From: a virus
Taxonomy: Duplodnaviria; Heunggongvirae; Uroviricota; Caudoviricetes
DNA: 64,000 bases
Direction: 5' to 3' (one strand)
Virus record (IMG/VR): IMGVR_UViG_3300025896_000021
How positions within the stretch are numbered: position 1 is the first letter of the stretch; each line of letters begins with the position of its first letter. The notes below the pieces were generated by a model, which was not told where the DNA came from, searched no databases, and saw only the letters and a program-made list of their open reading frames with translations. This document shows positions 8,537 through 35,565 of this stretch, in pieces. The position numbers were made by a program, and so were the translations under genes.

Positions 8537-9464
8537 TGTAGCAGATTTAGATTGCATCTACCTAAGCTATGATGAACCGCAGAAGGAAGAATTCTGGGTT
8601 AAGATTAAGAACATGGTGCCTTGGGCACAACGAGTAGATGGTGTCAAGGGTAGTGATGCAGCACACAAAGCCGCTGCAGAGGCAAGCGACACTGAACGAT
8701 TTATCTTAATCGACGGGGACAACATGCCCAATGAGTCTTTCTTCAATATGCAGTTAGACTTCACTGACAAAGACAAGAACTATGAACTAGCGCAGTATCG
8801 TTGGAAAGCTATCAACAGCGTTAACGGATTACGTTATGGCAACGGTGGCATGAGTTCATGGACAAAATCTTATGTAATGAACATGAAGACCCATGAAGCT
8901 AGCGACGGCAATGACAACAACACAGTAGACTTTTGTTTAGACAGTAGCGACAACTTGTATTGGTCAATGCATGATTGCTACTCTACTACCTATCCCAACA
9001 TGACAAGTTTTCAAGCATGGCGTGCAGGGTTTCGTGAAGGTGTCAAGATGTGTCTAGTCAACGGAGCAAAGCCTTCAGTTGAACAGTTTAAAGATAGTGT
9101 TGCGAATAGGAACATGAACAACTTGACGATCTGGCACAACGTGGGCATGGATGCAGAGAATGGTGACTGGGCAATGTATGGTGCTAGACTAGGAACATAC
9201 ATGACTATGCTTACTGATTGGAATCCACAAGAAGTTCAATGGTTTGACAACTTTGCAAAACTATGGGACGAATACAAAGATAGAGATCCAAGATTCTCTA
9301 GTGAATTCTTTGGTGGAGCATTGGGTGACAAATTAGGATTGCCTATCTGTACACTAAATGCAGAACAAAGTAAATTCTTTAAACGTCACTATAACACTGA
9401 CAAACACAACATGGGTCCTCTCGTTAGAGAGATGGACGTAATTAGAAACATAGAGGGCTGGTAA
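8517..9464 (+). CDS. GT2-like nucleotide-sugar transferase
   Basis: ILIDGDN DxD motif; AWRAGFREGVKM; related to the C-terminal domain of 19380..22874. Confidence 0.55.
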   Translation: MSTNIVDVADLDCIYLSYDEPQKEEFWVKIKNMVPWAQRVDGVKGSDAAHKAAAEASDTERFILIDGDNMPNESFFNMQLDFTDKDKNYELAQYRWKAINSVNGLRYGNGGMSSWTKSYVMNMKTHEASDGNDNNTVDFCLDSSDNLYWSMHDCYSTTYPNMTSFQAWRAGFREGVKMCLVNGAKPSVEQFKDSVANRNMNNLTIWHNVGMDAENGDWAMYGARLGTYMTMLTDWNPQEVQWFDNFAKLWDEYKDRDPRFSSEFFGGALGDKLGLPICTLNAEQSKFFKRHYNTDKHNMGPLVREMDVIRNIEGW

Positions 9465-10882
9465 TGTCAGACTTAGACGGTAATTATAAAAAGCATCTTT
9501 TAGATGTTAAACAAAAAGTTGATGCAGTCAGTGATAGCTTCTGTGCAGCTAAATGGAAGCAAGTAACGATTCACTTGCAGAATGGTCATACTCATAGTTG
9601 CCATCACCCAAAGACTCACGTAGTCCCGTTGGATGAGATTGCAATTAATCCGTCAGCATTGCACAACACTAACTTTAAAAAAGAACAACGCAAGATGATG
9701 CTTGAAGGTAGTCGTCCAAGTGAATGTGACTACTGCTGGAGAGTAGAAGATAGCAACAAGGACAACGATGTATTCAGTGACAGATACACTAAGAGCGCAG
9801 ACCCTTGGGCAGCACCCTTCATTGAAGAAATTGCTAGCAAGAAATGGGATGACAACGTTGATCCTAGTTATGTAGAGGTAGCATTTAGTAGCACGTGTAA
9901 TTTCAAGTGCAGCTATTGCAGCCCTGACGTTAGCAGCAAGTGGATGGAAGAAATTGAACGCTATGGAGCATATCCTACGAGCACTAACTTCAATAACTTA
10001 GACAACATTAGTCAAGCTAAGAAGATTCCTATCAGAAACAAAGACTACAACCCGTATGTTGAATCATTCTGGAAGTGGTGGCCACAACTGTATACTAGTC
10101 TAAAGACATTTAGAATCACAGGTGGAGAGCCATTACTAGCTAAAGATACGTTTCAAGTGCTTGACTATATCATTGAGCATCCTAACCCAGAACTTGAACT
10201 GAATATCAACAGTAACTTGTGCGTACCTGACGAGTTATTAAAGAAGTTTGTAGAGAAGATGAAACGTATTCAGGGTGAAGGACTTATCAAAGAGTTTAAG
10301 CTATATACCTCTGCTGAGGCACATGGTAAAAAAGCCGAGTACATCCGTAACGGACTAGACTACAACAAATGGTTAGACAACTGCAACTATGTATTGCGTG
10401 ATATTCCACAGAGTAAGTTAACTGTGATGGCTACTTACAATGCATTGAGTGTGACAAGTTTCACTCCATTCATGCAAGATATTCTAGACTTACGCAACAC
10501 ATACAACACAGGTGCTGACAGACGCAACCCGGTATCACTTGATACACCTTACTTGCGTTGGCCTTGGCATCAAAGTATGTTCATTCTTACTCCTGACTAT
10601 CTTCCTCAGATTCAAGATCAGGTTACGTTTATGTATCGCAACAAAGAACACATGATGTGGCCACCTACATGTGGTTATGGATTCTACGAACACGAGATTA
10701 ATAGAATGGAACGACTGTACTATGTCGCCAGGGATGAAAAGATCCCTGAGTTAGAACTGATTCGTAATCGCAAAGACTTTGTATCATTTGTAGATGAACA
10801 TGACAAGCGCAGGGGTACAGACTTCTTAGGTACTTTCCCTGAGATGGAAGAATTTTATAGAATGGCTAAAGAATTAAAATGA
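9464..10882 (+). CDS. Radical SAM protein with N-terminal twitch/SPASM-like domain
   Basis: CNFKCSYC (CxxxCxxC), TGGEP, N-terminal FC...SCH...ECDYCW. Confidence 0.9.
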   Translation: MSDLDGNYKKHLLDVKQKVDAVSDSFCAAKWKQVTIHLQNGHTHSCHHPKTHVVPLDEIAINPSALHNTNFKKEQRKMMLEGSRPSECDYCWRVEDSNKDNDVFSDRYTKSADPWAAPFIEEIASKKWDDNVDPSYVEVAFSSTCNFKCSYCSPDVSSKWMEEIERYGAYPTSTNFNNLDNISQAKKIPIRNKDYNPYVESFWKWWPQLYTSLKTFRITGGEPLLAKDTFQVLDYIIEHPNPELELNINSNLCVPDELLKKFVEKMKRIQGEGLIKEFKLYTSAEAHGKKAEYIRNGLDYNKWLDNCNYVLRDIPQSKLTVMATYNALSVTSFTPFMQDILDLRNTYNTGADRRNPVSLDTPYLRWPWHQSMFILTPDYLPQIQDQVTFMYRNKEHMMWPPTCGYGFYEHEINRMERLYYVARDEKIPELELIRNRKDFVSFVDEHDKRRGTDFLGTFPEMEEFYRMAKELK

Positions 10883-12285
10883 GTAAAGAACTATTTCAGT
10901 GGCGTCAACGAGTATTAGACAGTGTTAGTCCCAGCTTCTGTGCTGCGAAGTGGCTCAACGCTACAATACATCTAGGTCACGGCTATACCCATAGCTGTCA
11001 CTTGCCTATCCCTCATCCTATTAACGTAGAGGAATTGAAGGATAACCCATCGGCTATTCATAATACTGCTCATAAGAAAGAGCAACGCACTAAAATGCTA
11101 GCAGGTGAGCGTCCAAGCGAGTGTGAATACTGCTGGAAGATCGAAGATATAGGACGTGAGAACATCAGTGATAGAGTGTATAAGAGTAAGCCCTACAAAG
11201 AAGCTGATATCATTCGCATAGCCAAAGCTGACCCACAGGATAATGTCAACTTAAAGACACTAGAGATTAGTTTCGACCGCACGTGTAACTTTGGATGTAG
11301 TTATTGCAATGCAGGGTACAGTACAACATGGGCTAAGGACATTAAAGACAATGGAATCTATCAAGGCCTCAAGAGTGATGGTGCAGGTGCTTATCAAAAT
11401 GATGGATCATGGACAGAACCCTACGGCAAGTTCAACGAAGGTAACCCCTATACTGAGGCATTCTTTAAATGGTGGCCTGAACTGAGTAAAGACTTAGAGG
11501 AACTACGAGTTACTGGTGGTGAGCCTACAATGAGCCATCATTTTTGGAAATTATGTGAGGAGATCAAGACGCAAGACTTGAAACACTTACGCTTTGCTAC
11601 GAATAGTAACCTAGGTATGAAGCGTTCATTACTAGAAGACTTGGTTATGTTCACTAAGGAAGCGAATATCAAAGAGTTCGACCTCTATACTAGTAATGAA
11701 GCGTACGGTGAGCAAGCTGAATACATCCGTGACGGTATGGACTATCAAGTATGGCGTGATAATTTGATATATTTCATGGAGAATGCTAAGTTTCGTAGTG
11801 TAACTATTATGATGACCATTACTAGCGTATGCTTATTCAGTATTACTGACTTTTTAGATGATATGATATTGCTAAAGAAACAGTATGGACATAATAGACC
11901 AATGGTTGATTTAAATATCCTGCGCTGGCCTAGTTTCATGAGCCCTATAGCATTGCCGGATCATATTAAAGAATATTGCAGAACGAATCTATTAAATTGG
12001 TTCACTGTCAATAGAGTACATTTAACTGAGGGCGAGAATGCGCAGATTCAACGACTGATTGATTATATTGAAGTAGTTGAAACTCCACACCGCCGTGCTG
12101 TAACTGATAAATCATATTTACATAATGATTTAAAGAGTTTCTACCAACAATATGATTTACGTAGGAATAAAGATATCAATGTATTTCCTGATATCTTTAC
12201 TGATTGGTTAAAAACTATTGAGATAGATAAAACAATTCCAATTAGACTGATCGGGAACGGAGCAATTACTAACTATGACAAGTAA
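10879..12285 (+). CDS. Radical SAM protein, tandem paralog
   Basis: CNFGCSYC, TGGEP, same twitch Cys pattern. Confidence 0.9.
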   Translation: MSKELFQWRQRVLDSVSPSFCAAKWLNATIHLGHGYTHSCHLPIPHPINVEELKDNPSAIHNTAHKKEQRTKMLAGERPSECEYCWKIEDIGRENISDRVYKSKPYKEADIIRIAKADPQDNVNLKTLEISFDRTCNFGCSYCNAGYSTTWAKDIKDNGIYQGLKSDGAGAYQNDGSWTEPYGKFNEGNPYTEAFFKWWPELSKDLEELRVTGGEPTMSHHFWKLCEEIKTQDLKHLRFATNSNLGMKRSLLEDLVMFTKEANIKEFDLYTSNEAYGEQAEYIRDGMDYQVWRDNLIYFMENAKFRSVTIMMTITSVCLFSITDFLDDMILLKKQYGHNRPMVDLNILRWPSFMSPIALPDHIKEYCRTNLLNWFTVNRVHLTEGENAQIQRLIDYIEVVETPHRRAVTDKSYLHNDLKSFYQQYDLRRNKDINVFPDIFTDWLKTIEIDKTIPIRLIGNGAITNYDK

Positions 12286-17618: not shown

Positions 17619-17703
17619 CTTCTTCAAGAATCTCATGCGTGAGTACAAGTATCGAAAACGCCTAAAAGAAATGCGTAAAAAAGATCCATTCATCTACAAA
17701 TGA
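17605..17703 (+). CDS. Small basic protein (32 aa, ...YRKRLKEMRKKDPFIYK)
   Basis: Not in ORF track; ATGA overlap with carbamoyltransferase. Confidence 0.65.
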   Translation: MFVINFFKNLMREYKYRKRLKEMRKKDPFIYK

Positions 17704-19193
17704 ATTACATAGGGATTAGCTCTGGGTTCCATGATGCTGCCATCAGTGTCGTGAATAGTTACGGGGAAATTATATTTGCAGGGCATAGTGAACGGTACAG
17801 TAACTTTAAACATGACTCGCACTTATGTTTGCCTCTAATCACTGATGCAAAATCATATATGGATAGTGATGACTATGAAGTTCATTACTATGAAAGACCT
17901 TGGCTCAAGTACTTACGTCAACTACGTGCAGGAGAACCCACTTGCATTGCAAACATATCAGTCAAAAATGTTATCGGTAGAAGTACTATTAAATATCAGT
18001 TAGGTAACAAGACTGTTCATACTCATAATCATCATTTAAGTCATGCTGCTGCTGGCTTTCAAACCAGTCCCTTTGATGACGCTACTGTTGTTATCATTGA
18101 TGCCATTGGAGAGTTTGACACTATCAGTATATGGGATGCTTCATATGATGAGGACACCGGACGTGCTGAATATAAAAAGGTATGGGGACAAACTTATCCT
18201 GACAGTATAGGACTATTCTATAGTGCAATGACTGCTAGAGTGGGACTACGCCCACTAGATGAAGAATATATTTTAATGGGTATGGCAGCATATGGCCAGT
18301 CACGTCACTCGGGTGAAATCTATGACACTCTTGTTGCATCAGCAAGAGAGTTACGATTCGATAAAAACTTGCACATAGGAGTACCCGACAACTTCTTAGA
18401 GGGTGCAAACAACATGGATATTGCTACTAGTACACAAATTGTTACAGAGCATTTGATCCAGCATGTCATTAGTAAGGCCCGTATGTTAGGCAAGAGTAAG
18501 AATCTTGTATATGGTGGCGGTGTAGCACTAAACTGTTTAGCTAATAGATTACTAGGAAATTACTATGATAACATTTGGATCATGCCAAATCCGGGCGATG
18601 CAGGCTCTAGTCTCGGTGCAGCATGTCTTGGGTACAAGTATAAAGTTAATTGGAATGATGCTTATCTTGGGCATGACATTGTTGGGAACTATCCTGTTAA
18701 TAGTTTACTTGATGTGTTACTTACTGACCGCATCGTTGGTGTCGCATCAGGTCGCGCAGAGTTCGGCCCGAGAGCATTGGGAAACAGAAGTCTCCTTGCA
18801 GACCCTAGAGGTAGTGAAATTAAGGATAAAGTAAATGAAATCAAACGTAGACAAAAATTCAGACCATTTGCGCCGGTCATTCTGGAAGAGTATGCTGATA
18901 ATTATTTCAGCATGCCTGATGGCTGGGATAATAGTAGGTATATGCAAGTCATCAGTACTTGTAGGCATCCTGACTTATTTCCTGCTATCGTGCATCATGA
19001 TGGGACTAGTCGTGTCCAAACTGTCCCAAAAGATGGAAGCGGAATTAGAGAACTCCTTGAAAAGTGGTTCGTCTTGACAGGATGCCCTATGCTGCTTAAC
19101 ACTAGCTTGAATGTTAGGGGTGAACCAATGGTTAATGATCGGGCAGATGCAGACAGATTTGAACAATTGTATGGGGTCAAGGTTTTATCGTGA
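17700..19193 (+). CDS. NodU/CmcH/TobZ-family carbamoyltransferase
   Basis: HDAA, HHLSHAA, GGVALNC, EFGPRALGNRS, RPFAP, LLNTSLN. Confidence 0.93.
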   Translation: MNYIGISSGFHDAAISVVNSYGEIIFAGHSERYSNFKHDSHLCLPLITDAKSYMDSDDYEVHYYERPWLKYLRQLRAGEPTCIANISVKNVIGRSTIKYQLGNKTVHTHNHHLSHAAAGFQTSPFDDATVVIIDAIGEFDTISIWDASYDEDTGRAEYKKVWGQTYPDSIGLFYSAMTARVGLRPLDEEYILMGMAAYGQSRHSGEIYDTLVASARELRFDKNLHIGVPDNFLEGANNMDIATSTQIVTEHLIQHVISKARMLGKSKNLVYGGGVALNCLANRLLGNYYDNIWIMPNPGDAGSSLGAACLGYKYKVNWNDAYLGHDIVGNYPVNSLLDVLLTDRIVGVASGRAEFGPRALGNRSLLADPRGSEIKDKVNEIKRRQKFRPFAPVILEEYADNYFSMPDGWDNSRYMQVISTCRHPDLFPAIVHHDGTSRVQTVPKDGSGIRELLEKWFVLTGCPMLLNTSLNVRGEPMVNDRADADRFEQLYGVKVLS

Positions 19194-25910: not shown

Positions 25911-26498
25911 ATGACAGAAGAAATTAAAGACGTTAATGCTAAGATTGACGATATGGAAGCAGCAGCAAAAAAATATGCCAGTAAGGATACAGTCATTAGT
26001 ATTGGAGGATATGAATTTACTCCTGCTAAACTAATGGTTGCGTTCACACTAGTATCATCCTTGTTGGGTGGACTGTATGGTGCATTTGAAGTTTACAAAG
26101 ACTATCAAGGTATGAAGAAGAAGATATCTGAATACTCGGCACCAGACTTATCAGGATTTGATAAGCGTCTAGCAGTGATTGAAGAAACATCTGGTAAGAC
26201 TGCTGATTACACTCGTGATATTAAGAATGATCTTAAGACTGATATCCGTCGTAACGAAACAGTTACTGAACAAGTTGAACGCAGTGTTAAAACAGCCCAA
26301 CGTGAATCAGAAGGTGAGATGCGTGATATGCGTAAGGGTGTTAGAGAAGACCTAGACAAAGCTCGTGCAGAAGCAGCAGCAGTGCGTACTGAAATGGCAC
26401 AGGCACGTAGAGAGATTGGCAAGGAAGTGGAACAATTGAAGAAAGAGATTGACCAAAAGATACAGAAAGCTATTGACAATCCTTTAGCAAACAAGTAA
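25911..26498 (+). CDS. Membrane-anchored coiled-coil protein
   Basis: One TM segment followed by a heptad-rich region. Confidence 0.7.
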   Translation: MTEEIKDVNAKIDDMEAAAKKYASKDTVISIGGYEFTPAKLMVAFTLVSSLLGGLYGAFEVYKDYQGMKKKISEYSAPDLSGFDKRLAVIEETSGKTADYTRDIKNDLKTDIRRNETVTEQVERSVKTAQRESEGEMRDMRKGVREDLDKARAEAAAVRTEMAQARREIGKEVEQLKKEIDQKIQKAIDNPLANK

Positions 26499-26511
26499 AC
26501 TATACTAAATA

Positions 26512-26581
26512 AGAGTTATTGTTGTATGAAGTAGATTGAAAAGGATTCAAGACGCGGGTTCGAATCCCGCCAGGTCCACCA
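26512..26581 (+). ncRNA. ssrA: Two-piece (permuted) tmRNA, acceptor piece
   Basis: T-arm GCGGG-TTCGAAT-CCCGC (26554-26570), acceptor 3' strand CAGGTCC, discriminator A, CCA (26579-26581); 5' boundary inferred. Confidence 0.88.
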
Positions 26582-26592
26582 TAAGGAAGTTT

Positions 26593-26742
26593 ATGAAAAG
26601 CATATATCATGGCACAGCAGGTGCCAACGCAAAACTTAAAGGTAAAAAATTTAAACTTTTGTCATGTGGTTGTTGTGTATTGTTCAACCTAAAATGGGAA
26701 GAACGTATGAAAGAAGCAAAGAAAGAAATAAAATCTTTATGA
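26593..26742 (+). CDS. 49-aa basic SCGCC protein inside the tmRNA intervening segment
   Basis: AAGGA RBS just after CCA; TGA ends 1 nt before tmRNA G1. Confidence 0.7.
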   Translation: MKSIYHGTAGANAKLKGKKFKLLSCGCCVLFNLKWEERMKEAKKEIKSL

Positions 26743-26743
26743 T

Positions 26744-26962
26744 GGGCCTGCTCCGGTAATCGATTGGGTCAAGAGTAGAGAAATGGACAACTCGGCAATG
26801 TAGAAGCCGTAGGATTAGGGTAACTTTAGTCGCTATGCCCATAGCATAGAAAGACGGAGCCTGGTCGTAGACACAAAAAACCATAAATGCAAACGATTCA
26901 GTTTACGCATTGGCTGCTTAAATGACGCCTAGGGTAGTTATACCTCGTAACAGAAAATAACA
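26744..26962 (+). ncRNA. ssrA: Two-piece (permuted) tmRNA, coding piece; tag (A)NDSVYALAA
   Basis: 5' GGGCCTG pairs with CAGGTCC including G3.U70; tag frame 26889-26921; TTGGGTC pairs with GATTCAA; 3' boundary inferred. Confidence 0.9.
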
Positions 26963-26964
26963 AA

Positions 26965-26986
26965 GAAAGGCTCTTCGGAGCCTTTC
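26965..26986 (+). terminator. Stem-loop after tmRNA
   Basis: GAAAGGCTC-TTCG-GAGCCTTTC. Confidence 0.75.
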
Positions 26987-27003
26987 CCCATATAAATACA
27001 GAT

Positions 27004-27672
27004 ATGATATACTTCAAAGAAACAGATTTAAAGTTTGCAGACGACATACAAGCAGAAGTCTTGGACATCTGTCACAATCGTCCTGAAGAATTAGTCATGC
27101 GCAATCCAGAGTGGCGCCGAATACTCAATGACACTCCCTACCGTGAAATAGAATCTTACATTGGCGTTAAAGCCGCACGTGAGATTAAGTTTCGACGCAT
27201 TGCTATGCTTAAGAAATTTAATGCACTAACGCAAATTAGTTTCTTACAGTACAGTTTACCGGATCGATTGAATGAGGCATTTAAAGATGCATGTCCTTCG
27301 TTCCTACCTAAGGATGAACTGATTCCGATTGTACAAATAAGTACAGGTGGAAGCATGTTGTATCCACATAAAGGTCATTTTAGAAAAGCAAGTTTATTCT
27401 GCTTGCTTGAAGGTGGAGATGAGATTACTAAATGGTGGAAAGAAACTACCCCGTTTGATCTAATTCCTGAGTATAGAATCCCGGATATAACCAAGTGCGA
27501 AGAAGCTGTTTCTACCGTGCTTAAAAAGAATGTGTGGACTTTGTTCAATCACTATGAATGGCATTCGGTGCATTCTTATAAAGAGAACATTGAGTTTCGT
27601 GTCAACTTGGGTGTTGATTTTAAAACACTATCTGCGGATCAAGTTTACGAGAAAATACAAAATCATGTTTAA
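27004..27672 (+). CDS. Putative cupin/2OG-Fe(II) oxygenase-like protein
   Basis: PHKGH...WHSVH...RVNLG; TATAAATA directly upstream. Confidence 0.45.
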   Translation: MIYFKETDLKFADDIQAEVLDICHNRPEELVMRNPEWRRILNDTPYREIESYIGVKAAREIKFRRIAMLKKFNALTQISFLQYSLPDRLNEAFKDACPSFLPKDELIPIVQISTGGSMLYPHKGHFRKASLFCLLEGGDEITKWWKETTPFDLIPEYRIPDITKCEEAVSTVLKKNVWTLFNHYEWHSVHSYKENIEFRVNLGVDFKTLSADQVYEKIQNHV

Positions 27673-29196: not shown

Positions 29197-30072
29197 ATGA
29201 AGAAAATCTTAATCGCCGGCGCAATGCTAGCAGCTATGGGAATCGCGCAAGCGCAAGTTACTGTTTATGGTAAAGTTCGCATGTACGAAGAAAGCACTAC
29301 AGTTGGAACTGCATCGGCAGTCACATCATTGACCAATGATTCAAGTCGTTTGGGCTTCAAAGGTACAGAGGCGCTAGGCAACGGTCTATCTGCAAACTTT
29401 CTCATTGAGACTACTGTTGCAGTTGACGCACCCTCAGCAACTACATTGGGCGACCGTGCAGCAACTTTTGGGTTGAGCAATTCGCTTGGATCAATTGCAG
29501 CAGGTCGTGACAAACACGCAGTTGCCAAGACTCTTGACAACTATGATGCTATGGGCAATGTGTTTGGTTCTAGCACCGCTGTTATTCACGCCGCACAAGG
29601 TACCCGCATTCAAAATGCAGTGTTCGTTTCGGCTACTCCAGTCAACGGATTGACTGTTAATTATCAAAATGCAAATAGTGAAGTAGCAGGTACTACTAAT
29701 AGTCAAGGCGCAAGCGTTGAATATGTAACTGGTCCAGTTTCGGCTACTATTGCTCGTTTTGATAACGGTACTACAAGTGCATCTAACATCTACGGTGCTA
29801 AGTTTAAATATTCAAACACTACGTTGTTTAGTATGTACTCCGATGATACAATTGCTGGTGTAAATTCTACTGGTAAGAGTATTGGTATCAATCAAGCTAT
29901 GGGTGCGGTTACTGCACTTGCAAGCTATGGTGAAAAAGAAGGTACTAAGGCTTATAACCTAGGTGCTACTTACGCTCTAAGCAAGAACACTAAGCTACAT
30001 GCTCGTTATGTTAAAGAAGTCGCCGCAGTTGACACTCAGAAAATTGGTGTCGGTATGGAACTGAATTTCTAA
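29197..30072 (+). CDS. Gram-negative trimeric porin (betaproteobacterial type)
   Basis: Signal peptide AQA-QVTVYG; SRLGFKGTEALGNGL; YALSKNT; terminal Phe. Confidence 0.92.
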   Translation: MKKILIAGAMLAAMGIAQAQVTVYGKVRMYEESTTVGTASAVTSLTNDSSRLGFKGTEALGNGLSANFLIETTVAVDAPSATTLGDRAATFGLSNSLGSIAAGRDKHAVAKTLDNYDAMGNVFGSSTAVIHAAQGTRIQNAVFVSATPVNGLTVNYQNANSEVAGTTNSQGASVEYVTGPVSATIARFDNGTTSASNIYGAKFKYSNTTLFSMYSDDTIAGVNSTGKSIGINQAMGAVTALASYGEKEGTKAYNLGATYALSKNTKLHARYVKEVAAVDTQKIGVGMELNF

Positions 30073-34269: not shown

Positions 34270-35565
34270 ATGAGTAAAAAGAATACACATAGCAAAAAGT
34301 ACGAAAATCTGATCGGCCCAACTGATTCGAAAGTTGATAATCTAGCACGTGAGCGTCTAGTTACAGCCCGTATTGGTTTGCTGTTGCGTCATTCATTTTT
34401 TGGTAATCTTGCAACACGCATGAAATTGATTAATGCTGATGAATGGTGCGGCACTGCTGCCACTGATGGTCAGAAATTCTATTACAATAGTCGCTTCATT
34501 ATGATGTTGAAGCCTAAAGAAGTCGAATTCTTAGTTGGGCATGAAGTCTTGCACGTTGTATATGATCACATGGGTCGTAGAAACAATCGTGACCCGCAAA
34601 TCTGGAACATTGCCGATGACTATGCAGTTAACGCTGACTTGAAACGTCACAAAGTTGGTCAATTCATTACTACTGTAGGTTGCTTATACGAACAAAAGTA
34701 TGATGGTCTACCAGCAGAACAAATCTATGATGACTTGATGAAAAACGTCAAGAAAATCTCTATTGAGGACCTCATTGATCAAATGCTTGATGATCACATG
34801 GACGGCGAAGACGGCGAAGATGGTGACGGCGATGGCGATGGTGACAAAGAAGGTAATGGTAAAGATGGTAAGAAGCCTGGTCGGGGCAAGCGCCCTCAAT
34901 TGTCGCAAGAAGAAAAGGACCGCATTCGTCAGGAAGTGAAGCAAGCAATTATCAGTGCCGCGCAAAGTGCAGAAGCAGGTACATTGCCTAAAGGTGTTGA
35001 ACGATTGATTCGTGACACTACTAACCCAGTCATGCCTTGGCGCGAACTGATTCAAACAAACTTGACTAGTTGCATTCGTACAGACTATAGCTGGGCACGT
35101 CCGTCACGTAGAAGCTGGCACATGGATGCTATCATGCCCGGTATGACCCCCGGTGAAGAAATTGATGTTGTAGTAACACTTGACATGTCAGGTTCTATCA
35201 GCAACAAACAAGCGCAAGCATTCTTGGGCGAAGTTGGTGGCATGATGCAATCATTCGATGGTTACAAGGTCCATATCTTTTGCTTTGATACTAAGACTTA
35301 CAACCCACAAGACTTCTCTAGCGAGAACATGGACCTGATTGAAAATTATGAGCCAATGGGCGGCGGTGGCACTGACTTTGATTGTATCTTTGAATACTTG
35401 AAAGAAAATGCAATTGACCCCAAGCGACTGATTGTGTTCACTGACGGGTATCCCTGTGGTAGTTGGGGTGACAAAGATTACTGTGATACGACTTGGATCA
35501 TTCATGGTGACCCTGATCCGCATCCCCCGTTCGGTACGTTCGCATTGTATGATGAAACAAAATAA
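34270..35565 (+). CDS. DUF2201-like HExxH metallopeptidase plus VWA domain (MoxR partner)
   Basis: TAATDG, HEVLH, DMSGS MIDAS, GGGGTDF, FTDG. Confidence 0.88.
   Translation: MSKKNTHSKKYENLIGPTDSKVDNLARERLVTARIGLLLRHSFFGNLATRMKLINADEWCGTAATDGQKFYYNSRFIMMLKPKEVEFLVGHEVLHVVYDHMGRRNNRDPQIWNIADDYAVNADLKRHKVGQFITTVGCLYEQKYDGLPAEQIYDDLMKNVKKISIEDLIDQMLDDHMDGEDGEDGDGDGDGDKEGNGKDGKKPGRGKRPQLSQEEKDRIRQEVKQAIISAAQSAEAGTLPKGVERLIRDTTNPVMPWRELIQTNLTSCIRTDYSWARPSRRSWHMDAIMPGMTPGEEIDVVVTLDMSGSISNKQAQAFLGEVGGMMQSFDGYKVHIFCFDTKTYNPQDFSSENMDLIENYEPMGGGGTDFDCIFEYLKENAIDPKRLIVFTDGYPCGSWGDKDYCDTTWIIHGDPDPHPPFGTFALYDETK

Follow-up and report, generated by a model that had tools for sequence, protein, structure and literature searches.

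The permuted tmRNA gene

The DNA analysed here, a stretch of 64,000 nucleotides referred to as the window, belongs to a phage, as is evident from its genes for a terminase large subunit, a UvsX-like recombinase, a helicase and a virion protein. The only permuted tmRNA gene that ARAGORN reported in the window lies on the plus strand at 26489-27012 and has the tag ANDSVYALAA. Two Rfam models matched the gene over their entire length, RF04321 (tmRNA_permuted, model positions 1-213 of 213) with 89.7 bits against a gathering score of 47, and RF01850 (beta_tmRNA, positions 1-331 of 331) with 89.8 bits against 84. The permuted gene order is present, an acceptor piece with encoded CCA being followed by a spacer and then by the coding piece that starts from G1. 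According to the RF04321 alignment and the sequence, the acceptor piece (26520-26581) comprises the pairing strand, the T arm, the acceptor 3' strand, A73 and the CCA at 26579-26581. The coding piece (26744-26991; ARAGORN, Rfam and sequence) begins with G1-G2-G3 of the acceptor 5' strand, carries the tag frame at 26889-26921 and ends with a terminal hairpin at 26960-26991. Alanine identity is provided by G3.U70 and A73; the acceptor 5' strand GGGCCTG faces CAGGTCC, with G3 opposite U. The tag frame is intact and reads ANDSVYALAA followed by a stop codon, so that the tag ends in ALAA.

Directly 5' of the gene, a consensus scan found a putative sigma-70-like promoter, TTGACA-17-TAAACT (26473-26501, plus strand, 10 of 12 matches), and many related loci have TTGACA-N17-TATAAT or TATACT at the equivalent place. 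A candidate TAAATA box of the T4-late-like kind, judged by its letters, is located at 26506-26511, about 8 nt before the acceptor piece; among the matches listed, 36 of 108 related loci likewise have one, in most cases at an equal distance.

Several other genes of the region were recorded along the way. Located 7.5 kb 3' of the tmRNA gene, at 34270-35565, is a gene for a 431-aa HNH endonuclease (PHROG 1314, E 1e-111); by its predicted product, the phage thus has one or more homing-type nucleases that are free-standing. Two adjacent radical-SAM paralogues (9464-12285), a NodU-type carbamoyltransferase gene (17700-19193) and a Gram-negative porin gene (29197-30072) flank the tmRNA region; these are auxiliary genes with no relation to the spacer. 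In several related loci, tRNA genes with a CTA anticodon are found just 3' of the tmRNA gene (L002:1779-1853, L003:1835-1909, L006 and L007:1862-1936, L018:4599-4674). Their ARAGORN label is tRNA-Pyl, and as they would decode amber codons, one may ask whether these phages suppress amber codons or recode stop codons.

The open reading frame in the spacer

Between CCA and G1 lies an intervening segment of 162 nt (26582-26743, plus strand), which would be removed at maturation; its limits, determined from the sequence and Rfam, match exactly those originally predicted. The segment contains a ribosome-binding site (RBS), AAGGAAG at 26583-26589, together with the start codon ATG at 26593 and the stop codon TGA at 26740-26742, the latter being separated from G1 at 26744 by a lone T at 26743. 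The original prediction had described an AAGGA RBS with a 49-codon open reading frame (ORF) that fills the spacer, stops 1 nt before the RNase P site and encodes a Lys-rich peptide with an SCGCC motif; all of this was found as described, the peptide having 11 lysines and the motif S-C-G-C-C. A 68-codon version of the ORF starting from TTG 26536 inside the T arm, which was called once as a gene (P0005), was rejected, because every free-standing homologue begins at the invariant MKSI.

When the spacer was shuffled with both ends kept, an ORF covering at least 80% of it arose in only 0.6% of the shuffles. The interior of the spacer did not fold better than shuffled sequences (z -0.71). A back-translated search found relatives of the 49-aa protein at 13 IMG/VR loci, with 57-86% identity, and a collection of 5.8 billion proteins yielded 16 clusters of 49-77 aa (E 5e-21 to 6e-11), none of which is named beyond 'hypothetical'. 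Every relative comes from a metagenomic contig. One protein identical to that of the window is encoded on a 359-kb contig, and the source of the window is therefore probably a jumbo phage. The GenBank phage collection gave no DNA match to the tmRNA region or to the surrounding 14 kb and no tblastn match to the 49-aa peptide, and thus offers no cultured relative.

The core shared by this MKSI...SCxCC family aligns throughout in 22 members. Twelve residues are invariant (M1, K2, S3, I4, N12, L15, G17, K18, L23, C25, C27 and C28), and H6, G7, A11, K14, S24, N32, E37, K40, E41, A42, E45 and I46 are nearly so. Besides the window, four loci (L008, L252, L253 and L254) have the gene embedded in the spacer. 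The comparison of the window with L008 gave 16.3 synonymous differences over 28.2 sites and 8.7 nonsynonymous differences over 118.8 sites, that is, a dN/dS (omega) of 0.07. Across the five embedded copies omega was 0.07-0.23 in the ORF frame only; in the other two frames it was 0.5-3.8 for most pairs and lower in a few near-identical pairs that differ by 1-4 changes. The variable columns fall on codon positions 1, 2 and 3 in the ratio 3/8/21. From the ORF list, the homologues, dN/dS and the alignment, 26593-26742 (plus strand) was annotated as a 49-codon gene for a basic mini-protein with invariant C25, C27 and C28 and near-invariant H6. As far as comparative sequence evidence reaches, the spacer ORF is a genuine, conserved and selected protein gene. 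The proposal of a nested protein-coding gene was thus upheld by the homologues, the twelve invariant residues and an omega of this size in this frame only, and the possibility that the ORF is not conserved was refuted.

Properties of the protein

The protein has a mass of 5.6 kDa, a pI of 9.8, a charge of +7.6 and a GRAVY value of -0.38, and contains 11 Lys, 1 Arg and 3 Cys. An AF2 model consists of a helix, a beta-hairpin and a second helix, with C25-x-C27-C28 at the hairpin turn; no fold was assigned, because the confidence of the model is moderate (pLDDT 74.5). Searches for a known relative gave little. PHROGs contained no match, and Pfam, searched with E up to 0.1, returned only a chance-level hit to DpdA (E 0.017, 14.6 bits against a cut-off of 27). 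The ESM Atlas offered unnamed clusters only, with best scores of at most 0.84, and Foldseek found nothing at E <= 0.001 in the PDB and BFVD. Neither Pfam nor PHROGs matched the protein to a nuclease of the homing endonuclease types HNH, GIY-YIG or LAGLIDADG, and the same Pfam scan (E up to 0.1) gave no match to S23p (PF05635), the protein of 23S rRNA intervening sequences. A small membrane peptide or type I toxin-like ORF was also considered and rejected, given the GRAVY of -0.38, the charge of +7.6 and the lack of a hydrophobic run. Since a near-invariant His and three invariant Cys occur in a very basic 49-mer, our guess is that the protein is a Cys3-His metal-binding, nucleic-acid-binding factor of host takeover.

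In most relatives the gene is free-standing, with 52-56 codons and a variable C-terminal tail (52-77 aa over all free-standing homologues). A free-standing homologue lies 1-3 kb from a tmRNA gene with a short empty spacer in L002, L003, L005, L006 and L007, about 25 kb from the tmRNA gene in the L004 record, and 1 kb upstream of it in L009-L013, where the spacer holds an HNH gene. The embedded form consists of the conserved core only, the tail being replaced by Ser-Leu-stop. Because free-standing homologues exist, the protein does not depend on the spacer; judging from the loci compared, the spacer is one possible home of the gene and is not required for it.

Spacers of related phage tmRNA genes

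The contents of other spacers were surveyed by a spacer-blind scan, that is, with an exact pattern on the T arm, the acceptor strand and CCA only, which gave at least 120 loci with 100 unique spacers. Among the matches listed for this sample, an ORF fills at least 80% of the spacer in 34 of the 100 unique spacers and in 18 of the 20 that are longer than 120 nt, while 39 of the 100 are shorter than 82 nt and are plain hairpins. An additional scan with a 14-base pattern returned mostly random matches, with 11 tmRNA loci among the matches listed; as this pattern favours spacers that bear a Shine-Dalgarno (SD) motif, frequencies were taken from the spacer-blind scan. When the loci were pooled, 39 of 67 unique spacers of 82-300 nt among the matches listed had an ORF over at least 80% of their length, against 2.75 expected from end-preserving shuffles.

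The 40 cargo ORFs of the pooled set form 29 blastp clusters among the matches listed. They include a family of hydrophobic peptides of 22-24 aa and several other membrane-like peptides of 25-83 aa; those of 22-37 aa are plainly hydrophobic, and many cargo ORFs are without relatives. Two cargos are recognisable by homology. The 268-nt spacer of L206 encodes a thioredoxin of 84 aa (L206:213-464, minus strand) with the active site WCGPC (PF00085, 75 bits against a cut-off of 23.5). The 482-nt spacers of L009-L013 and L122 (L010:4082-4563, ORF L010:4092-4562) encode an HNH homing endonuclease of 156 aa, whose L009 copy matches PHROG 655 with E 7e-15 and PF01844 with 20.6 bits, just below the cut-off of 21.4. 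Its RBS, closing stem and TGA are arranged as in the small cargos. All 15 cargo-bearing tmRNAs that were examined match RF04321 over its full length with 97-153 bits.

Some spacers and loci were unusual. The 79-nt 'empty' spacers of L176, L211 and L215 contain a hairpin that resembles a tRNA T arm, GTAGGTTCGAGTCCTAC, and may be what is left of a tRNA; a tRNA-Ala gene has been reported from one permuted-tmRNA spacer (PMC11915505). In L033, with a spacer of 155 nt, an SD-led ORF in another frame runs 28 nt beyond G1 into the coding piece; it is either cargo that has shifted frame or is decaying, or an ORF that truly overlaps the mature tmRNA. The 101-nt spacers of L140, L153, L158, L162 and L243 have an SD-like AAAGGA and an ATG whose frame stops after about 12 codons; this family may consist of degenerate former cargo or of micro-ORFs. 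Most matches of a 28-mer scan of bacterial genomes lacked a permuted coding piece on their downstream side and seem to be tRNAs or tmRNAs of the one-piece type; the scan is uninformative on permuted tmRNAs of bacteria at large. A single permuted tmRNA with cargo turned up in it: L271, of the phage type, has a 23-aa hydrophobic peptide and lies on a 7.6-kb contig binned with an uncultured Bifidobacterium MAG; it is probably a misbinned phage contig.

Architecture of the spacer ends

Whether a spacer is coding or not, the 10-11 bases that follow CCA form base pairs with a stretch ending 4 nt ahead of G1. Among the 110 related spacers in the matches listed, positions 1-10 of this closing stem are paired in 94% of cases, against 49-62% in shifted registers, and the stem covaries, with up to six pair types per position. 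The last four bases, among the same listed matches, are TGAT in 77 of 110 and TAAT in 29 of 110, irrespective of coding. The 5' strand of the stem forms an SD-like motif in 31 of the 40 coding spacers as compared with 12 of the 70 non-coding ones, the start codon is placed at spacer position 10-16 in 38 of the 40 coding spacers, and the stop codon, the TGA of the leader, lies 1 nt before G1 in 34 of them (all among the matches listed).

In the window, minimum free energy folds pair the 5' strand TAAGGA (26582-26587), which overlaps the RBS AAGGAAG (26583-26589), with the 3' strand TCTTTA (26734-26739), which is at the same time the last two codons, Ser-Leu. The conserved leader TGAT before the RNase P site (26740-26743) provides the TGA stop codon. 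The stem is short here, with 6 pairs, or 8 if the CA of CCA pairs with the leader UG, likely because the conserved KKEIK of the protein runs almost to its end. Once folded, the closing stem would sequester the RBS, although in the window it is weak (6-8 pairs rich in A-U and G-U). The 3' strand of the stem supplies the last codons, and this is why unrelated cargo proteins end in VSL, KSL, VFL or VLL. Only one frame through that strand would meet a stop before G1, which would explain why the cargo frame is uniform.

Exchange of the spacers

The position had also been suspected to be an insertion hotspot, and this suggestion gained strong support from the 29 unrelated cargo clusters among the matches listed, from the HNH gene in the slot and from comparisons of spacers with their flanks. 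Identical or near-identical flanks enclose wholly different spacers, the agreement being complete over the 62 upstream bases, one locus excepted, and extending over about 110 bases downstream. Such flanks are shared by L176, L211 and L215 with L179, whose spacers differ, and also by L151 with a 53-nt hairpin, L158 with a 101-nt spacer, and L149 and L171 with two different membrane peptides. The reverse is seen in L008 and L252: their spacers are 98% identical, while the flanks are only 76% and 57% identical and the T-arm types differ. On a maximum likelihood tree built from the tmRNA parts only (98 rows, 316 columns), the coding or empty state changes at least 29 times, a count to be read with the short alignment and many weakly supported branches in mind. 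The five carriers of the 49-aa cargo require five changes on the same tree, at least four of which are forced by well-supported branches.

Since like flanks surround unlike cargo and like cargo sits in diverged flanks, the spacer behaves as a swapped cassette bounded by the tmRNA halves. The HNH gene in the slot suggests one possible driver of spacer replacement; ordinary recombination of co-infecting phages, in which the conserved halves provide the homology arms, would be enough as well. The contigs of four loci (L015, L016, L019 and L098) end within the spacer, 29-106 nt after CCA, and two of them, L015 and L019, begin a further cargo, of which about 30 codons precede the contig end. Such ends would be in keeping with a heterogeneous population at the site that interrupted the assembly.

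Discussion

Taken together, the comparisons of related loci demonstrate coding selection, a common architecture and cassette-like exchange, and we consider it highly probable that the window carries a real phage mini-protein gene in an exchangeable spacer slot, expressed via the pre-tmRNA or the excised spacer. Spacer cargo would be transcribed together with the tmRNA from one or more putative promoters directly upstream. The tmRNA halves would serve as homology arms for exchange between phages, and the content of the spacer would be absent from the mature RNA. A cargo gene would use the 5' strand of the closing stem as its RBS, the 3' strand as its last codons and the UGA of the leader as its stop.

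RNase P makes the 5' end of tmRNA at G1, and the acceptor piece is trimmed to CCA. The messenger may be either the pre-tmRNA or the excised spacer, and translation of the cargo would have to precede the trimming back to CCA, which would destroy the message. Initiation should be easiest before the 3' strand of the stem is transcribed, as the RBS would be free during transcription of the 150-nt ORF and could be closed later. The footprint of a ribosome extends about 15-20 nt to either side of the start codon at initiation and about 12-15 nt beyond the stop codon at termination. Initiation at 26593 would accordingly place a ribosome over the acceptor 3' strand and CCA, and termination at 26740 would place one over G1 to about G12. 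Because the ribosome would cover the acceptor strands, translation on the one side and formation of the acceptor stem and RNase P cleavage on the other would be mutually exclusive in time. Placing the stop codon before G1 would keep the RNase P cut from leaving a non-stop message. This anatomy, with the RBS and the last codons in a stem and the stop beside the RNase P site, fits a coupling of translation and processing as far as sequence can indicate.

The coupling might go further, with the pre-tmRNA acting as a programmed bifunctional transcript on which cargo translation and tmRNA maturation gate each other, although we regard this extension as rather unlikely. On such a transcript the RBS would be free until the closing stem is transcribed, which would allow about one round of translation per transcript, and ribosomes on the first and last codons would mask the acceptor strands and delay RNase P. 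After the cut the message would end 1 nt past the stop codon, late ribosomes would stand at a near-empty mRNA channel, and the release factor and trans-translation would compete there. If mutual gating holds, cargo dosage would follow tmRNA synthesis, and the host RNA itself might police it.

The most serious competitor of a useful phage gene, improbable in our estimation, is a selfish or neutral passenger: the spacer would be a safe harbour in which cargo spreads by recombination or homing, with no benefit to the phage and no link to maturation. It agrees with the preferred explanation on the movement of the cargo, and differs only on benefit and coupling. Passenger status would account well for the homing endonuclease in the slot of L009-L013 and L122, the patchy distribution of cargo on the tmRNA tree, the 98%-identical cassette in diverged flanks and the roughly two thirds of spacers among the matches listed that are empty hairpins. 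It accounts poorly for the 49-aa protein, which has no nuclease motif and, whether inside or outside the slot, is strongly constrained by purifying selection; constraint in both settings speaks for usefulness to the phage. In another alternative only the act of translation would matter, opening the closing stem and timing RNase P, with the peptide itself irrelevant. Such a cis-regulatory ORF would explain why the RBS and the last codons form the stem, why the stop abuts the RNase P site and why mutually unrelated cargo sequences share a constant architecture. We nevertheless find it very unlikely, as the amino-acid sequence is conserved (12 invariant residues, omega of about 0.1), the protein also occurs free-standing far from the tmRNA gene, for example at about 25 kb in the L004 record, and the thioredoxin and HNH cargos are clearly functional proteins.

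Two further explanations would deny function to one or the other of the nested genes. The insertion might have inactivated the tmRNA, leaving its halves as decaying remnants, and the insert of 162 nt is indeed longer than the empty spacers of 53-80 nt, but nothing else points specifically in this direction. Both halves match the covariance models in full length and above the gathering scores, G3.U70, A73, the encoded CCA and the intact tag frame ending in ALAA are all in place, the insert occupies precisely the interval from CCA to G1, which is where the spacer lies in all permuted tmRNAs, and the fifteen other cargo-bearing tmRNAs are full-length matches as well. An inactivated tmRNA is thus even less credible than a purely cis-regulatory ORF. 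Conversely, the ORF could be a chance product of a non-coding spacer or of a structured RNA, as it is short and lies in an A+T-rich region where few stop codons are possible in 150 nt. The shuffle probability of 0.006, homologues of 55-90% identity with changes biased towards synonymous sites and an interior that folds no better than shuffles (z -0.71) speak against this; because of the homologues, the frame-specific omega, the codon-position bias and the same z value, we take both the chance ORF and the structured non-coding RNA to be excluded for practical purposes.

The intervening sequence of permuted tmRNA genes has so far been treated as disposable and non-coding, and annotation pipelines therefore mask it under the RNA feature or call odd ORFs through the tRNA-like domain. 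It appears instead to be a widely used site of expression and exchange for small phage genes, with a fixed architecture, and it provides a route to nest protein genes in stable-RNA genes that is independent of splicing. It also offers a natural system for studying the competition of translation with tRNA-type processing on a single transcript. Some thirty small phage proteins that await study, among them membrane peptides, a thioredoxin and the Cys-bearing basic protein, are likely made together with the ribosome-rescue RNA.

Comparison with known systems

The finding amounts to a protein gene lying within a segment of a stable-RNA gene that would be discarded at maturation. In the non-subscription full-text literature searched, no protein gene in the spacer of a permuted tmRNA was found. 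Two-piece (permuted) tmRNA genes are known in aquatic myophages, namely the OM43 phage Melnitz and pelagimyophages (PMC9004378), and the tmRNA database paper of 2025 names two unusual kinds of spacer content, a tRNA-Ala gene and a repetitive element, and no others (PMC11915505). The gene in the window has the same gene order, tRNA-like domain, ALAA tag end and own upstream promoter (putative here) as the tmRNAs described in these two sources (PMC9004378, PMC11915505). It differs in that the spacers are treated there as non-coding, whereas the spacer of the window codes for a protein.

Within tmRNA, the same paper reports homing-endonuclease genes from group I introns only, with LAGLIDADG genes in 23 of 844 tmRNA introns (PMC11915505). 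Like such intron genes in tmRNA, tRNA and rRNA, the cargo is a protein gene within the removed part of a stable-RNA gene, and the slot of the L009 family even carries an HNH homing endonuclease. Unlike group I introns, however, the phage spacer involves no intron and no splicing, its predicted removal being by RNase P at G1 and by trimming to CCA, and most spacer cargos, the 49-aa protein included, are not nucleases.

The intervening sequences of bacterial 23S rRNA, as in Leptospira and Coxiella, carry the S23p ORF (Pfam PF05635) and are excised by RNase III. The likeness lies in an ORF within a stem-closed spacer that is excised, not spliced, from the precursor of a stable RNA; the host RNA and the nuclease are different, and S23p is one conserved family, in contrast to about 29 unrelated cargos here. 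In the tRNA gene region of phage T4, the free-standing homing endonuclease SegB and small ORFs are inherited by recombination together with flanking markers. There too, small accessory genes and a nuclease are lodged among conserved phage stable-RNA genes, but in T4 they lie between separate RNA genes, whereas the cargo described here is inside one RNA gene, between the halves of one molecule. Finally, in the dual-function bacterial RNAs SgrS/SgrT and RNAIII/hld the same mature RNA is both coding and non-coding. The pre-tmRNA resembles them as a single transcript with coding and non-coding roles, and differs from them in that the coding role would fall to the part lost at maturation.
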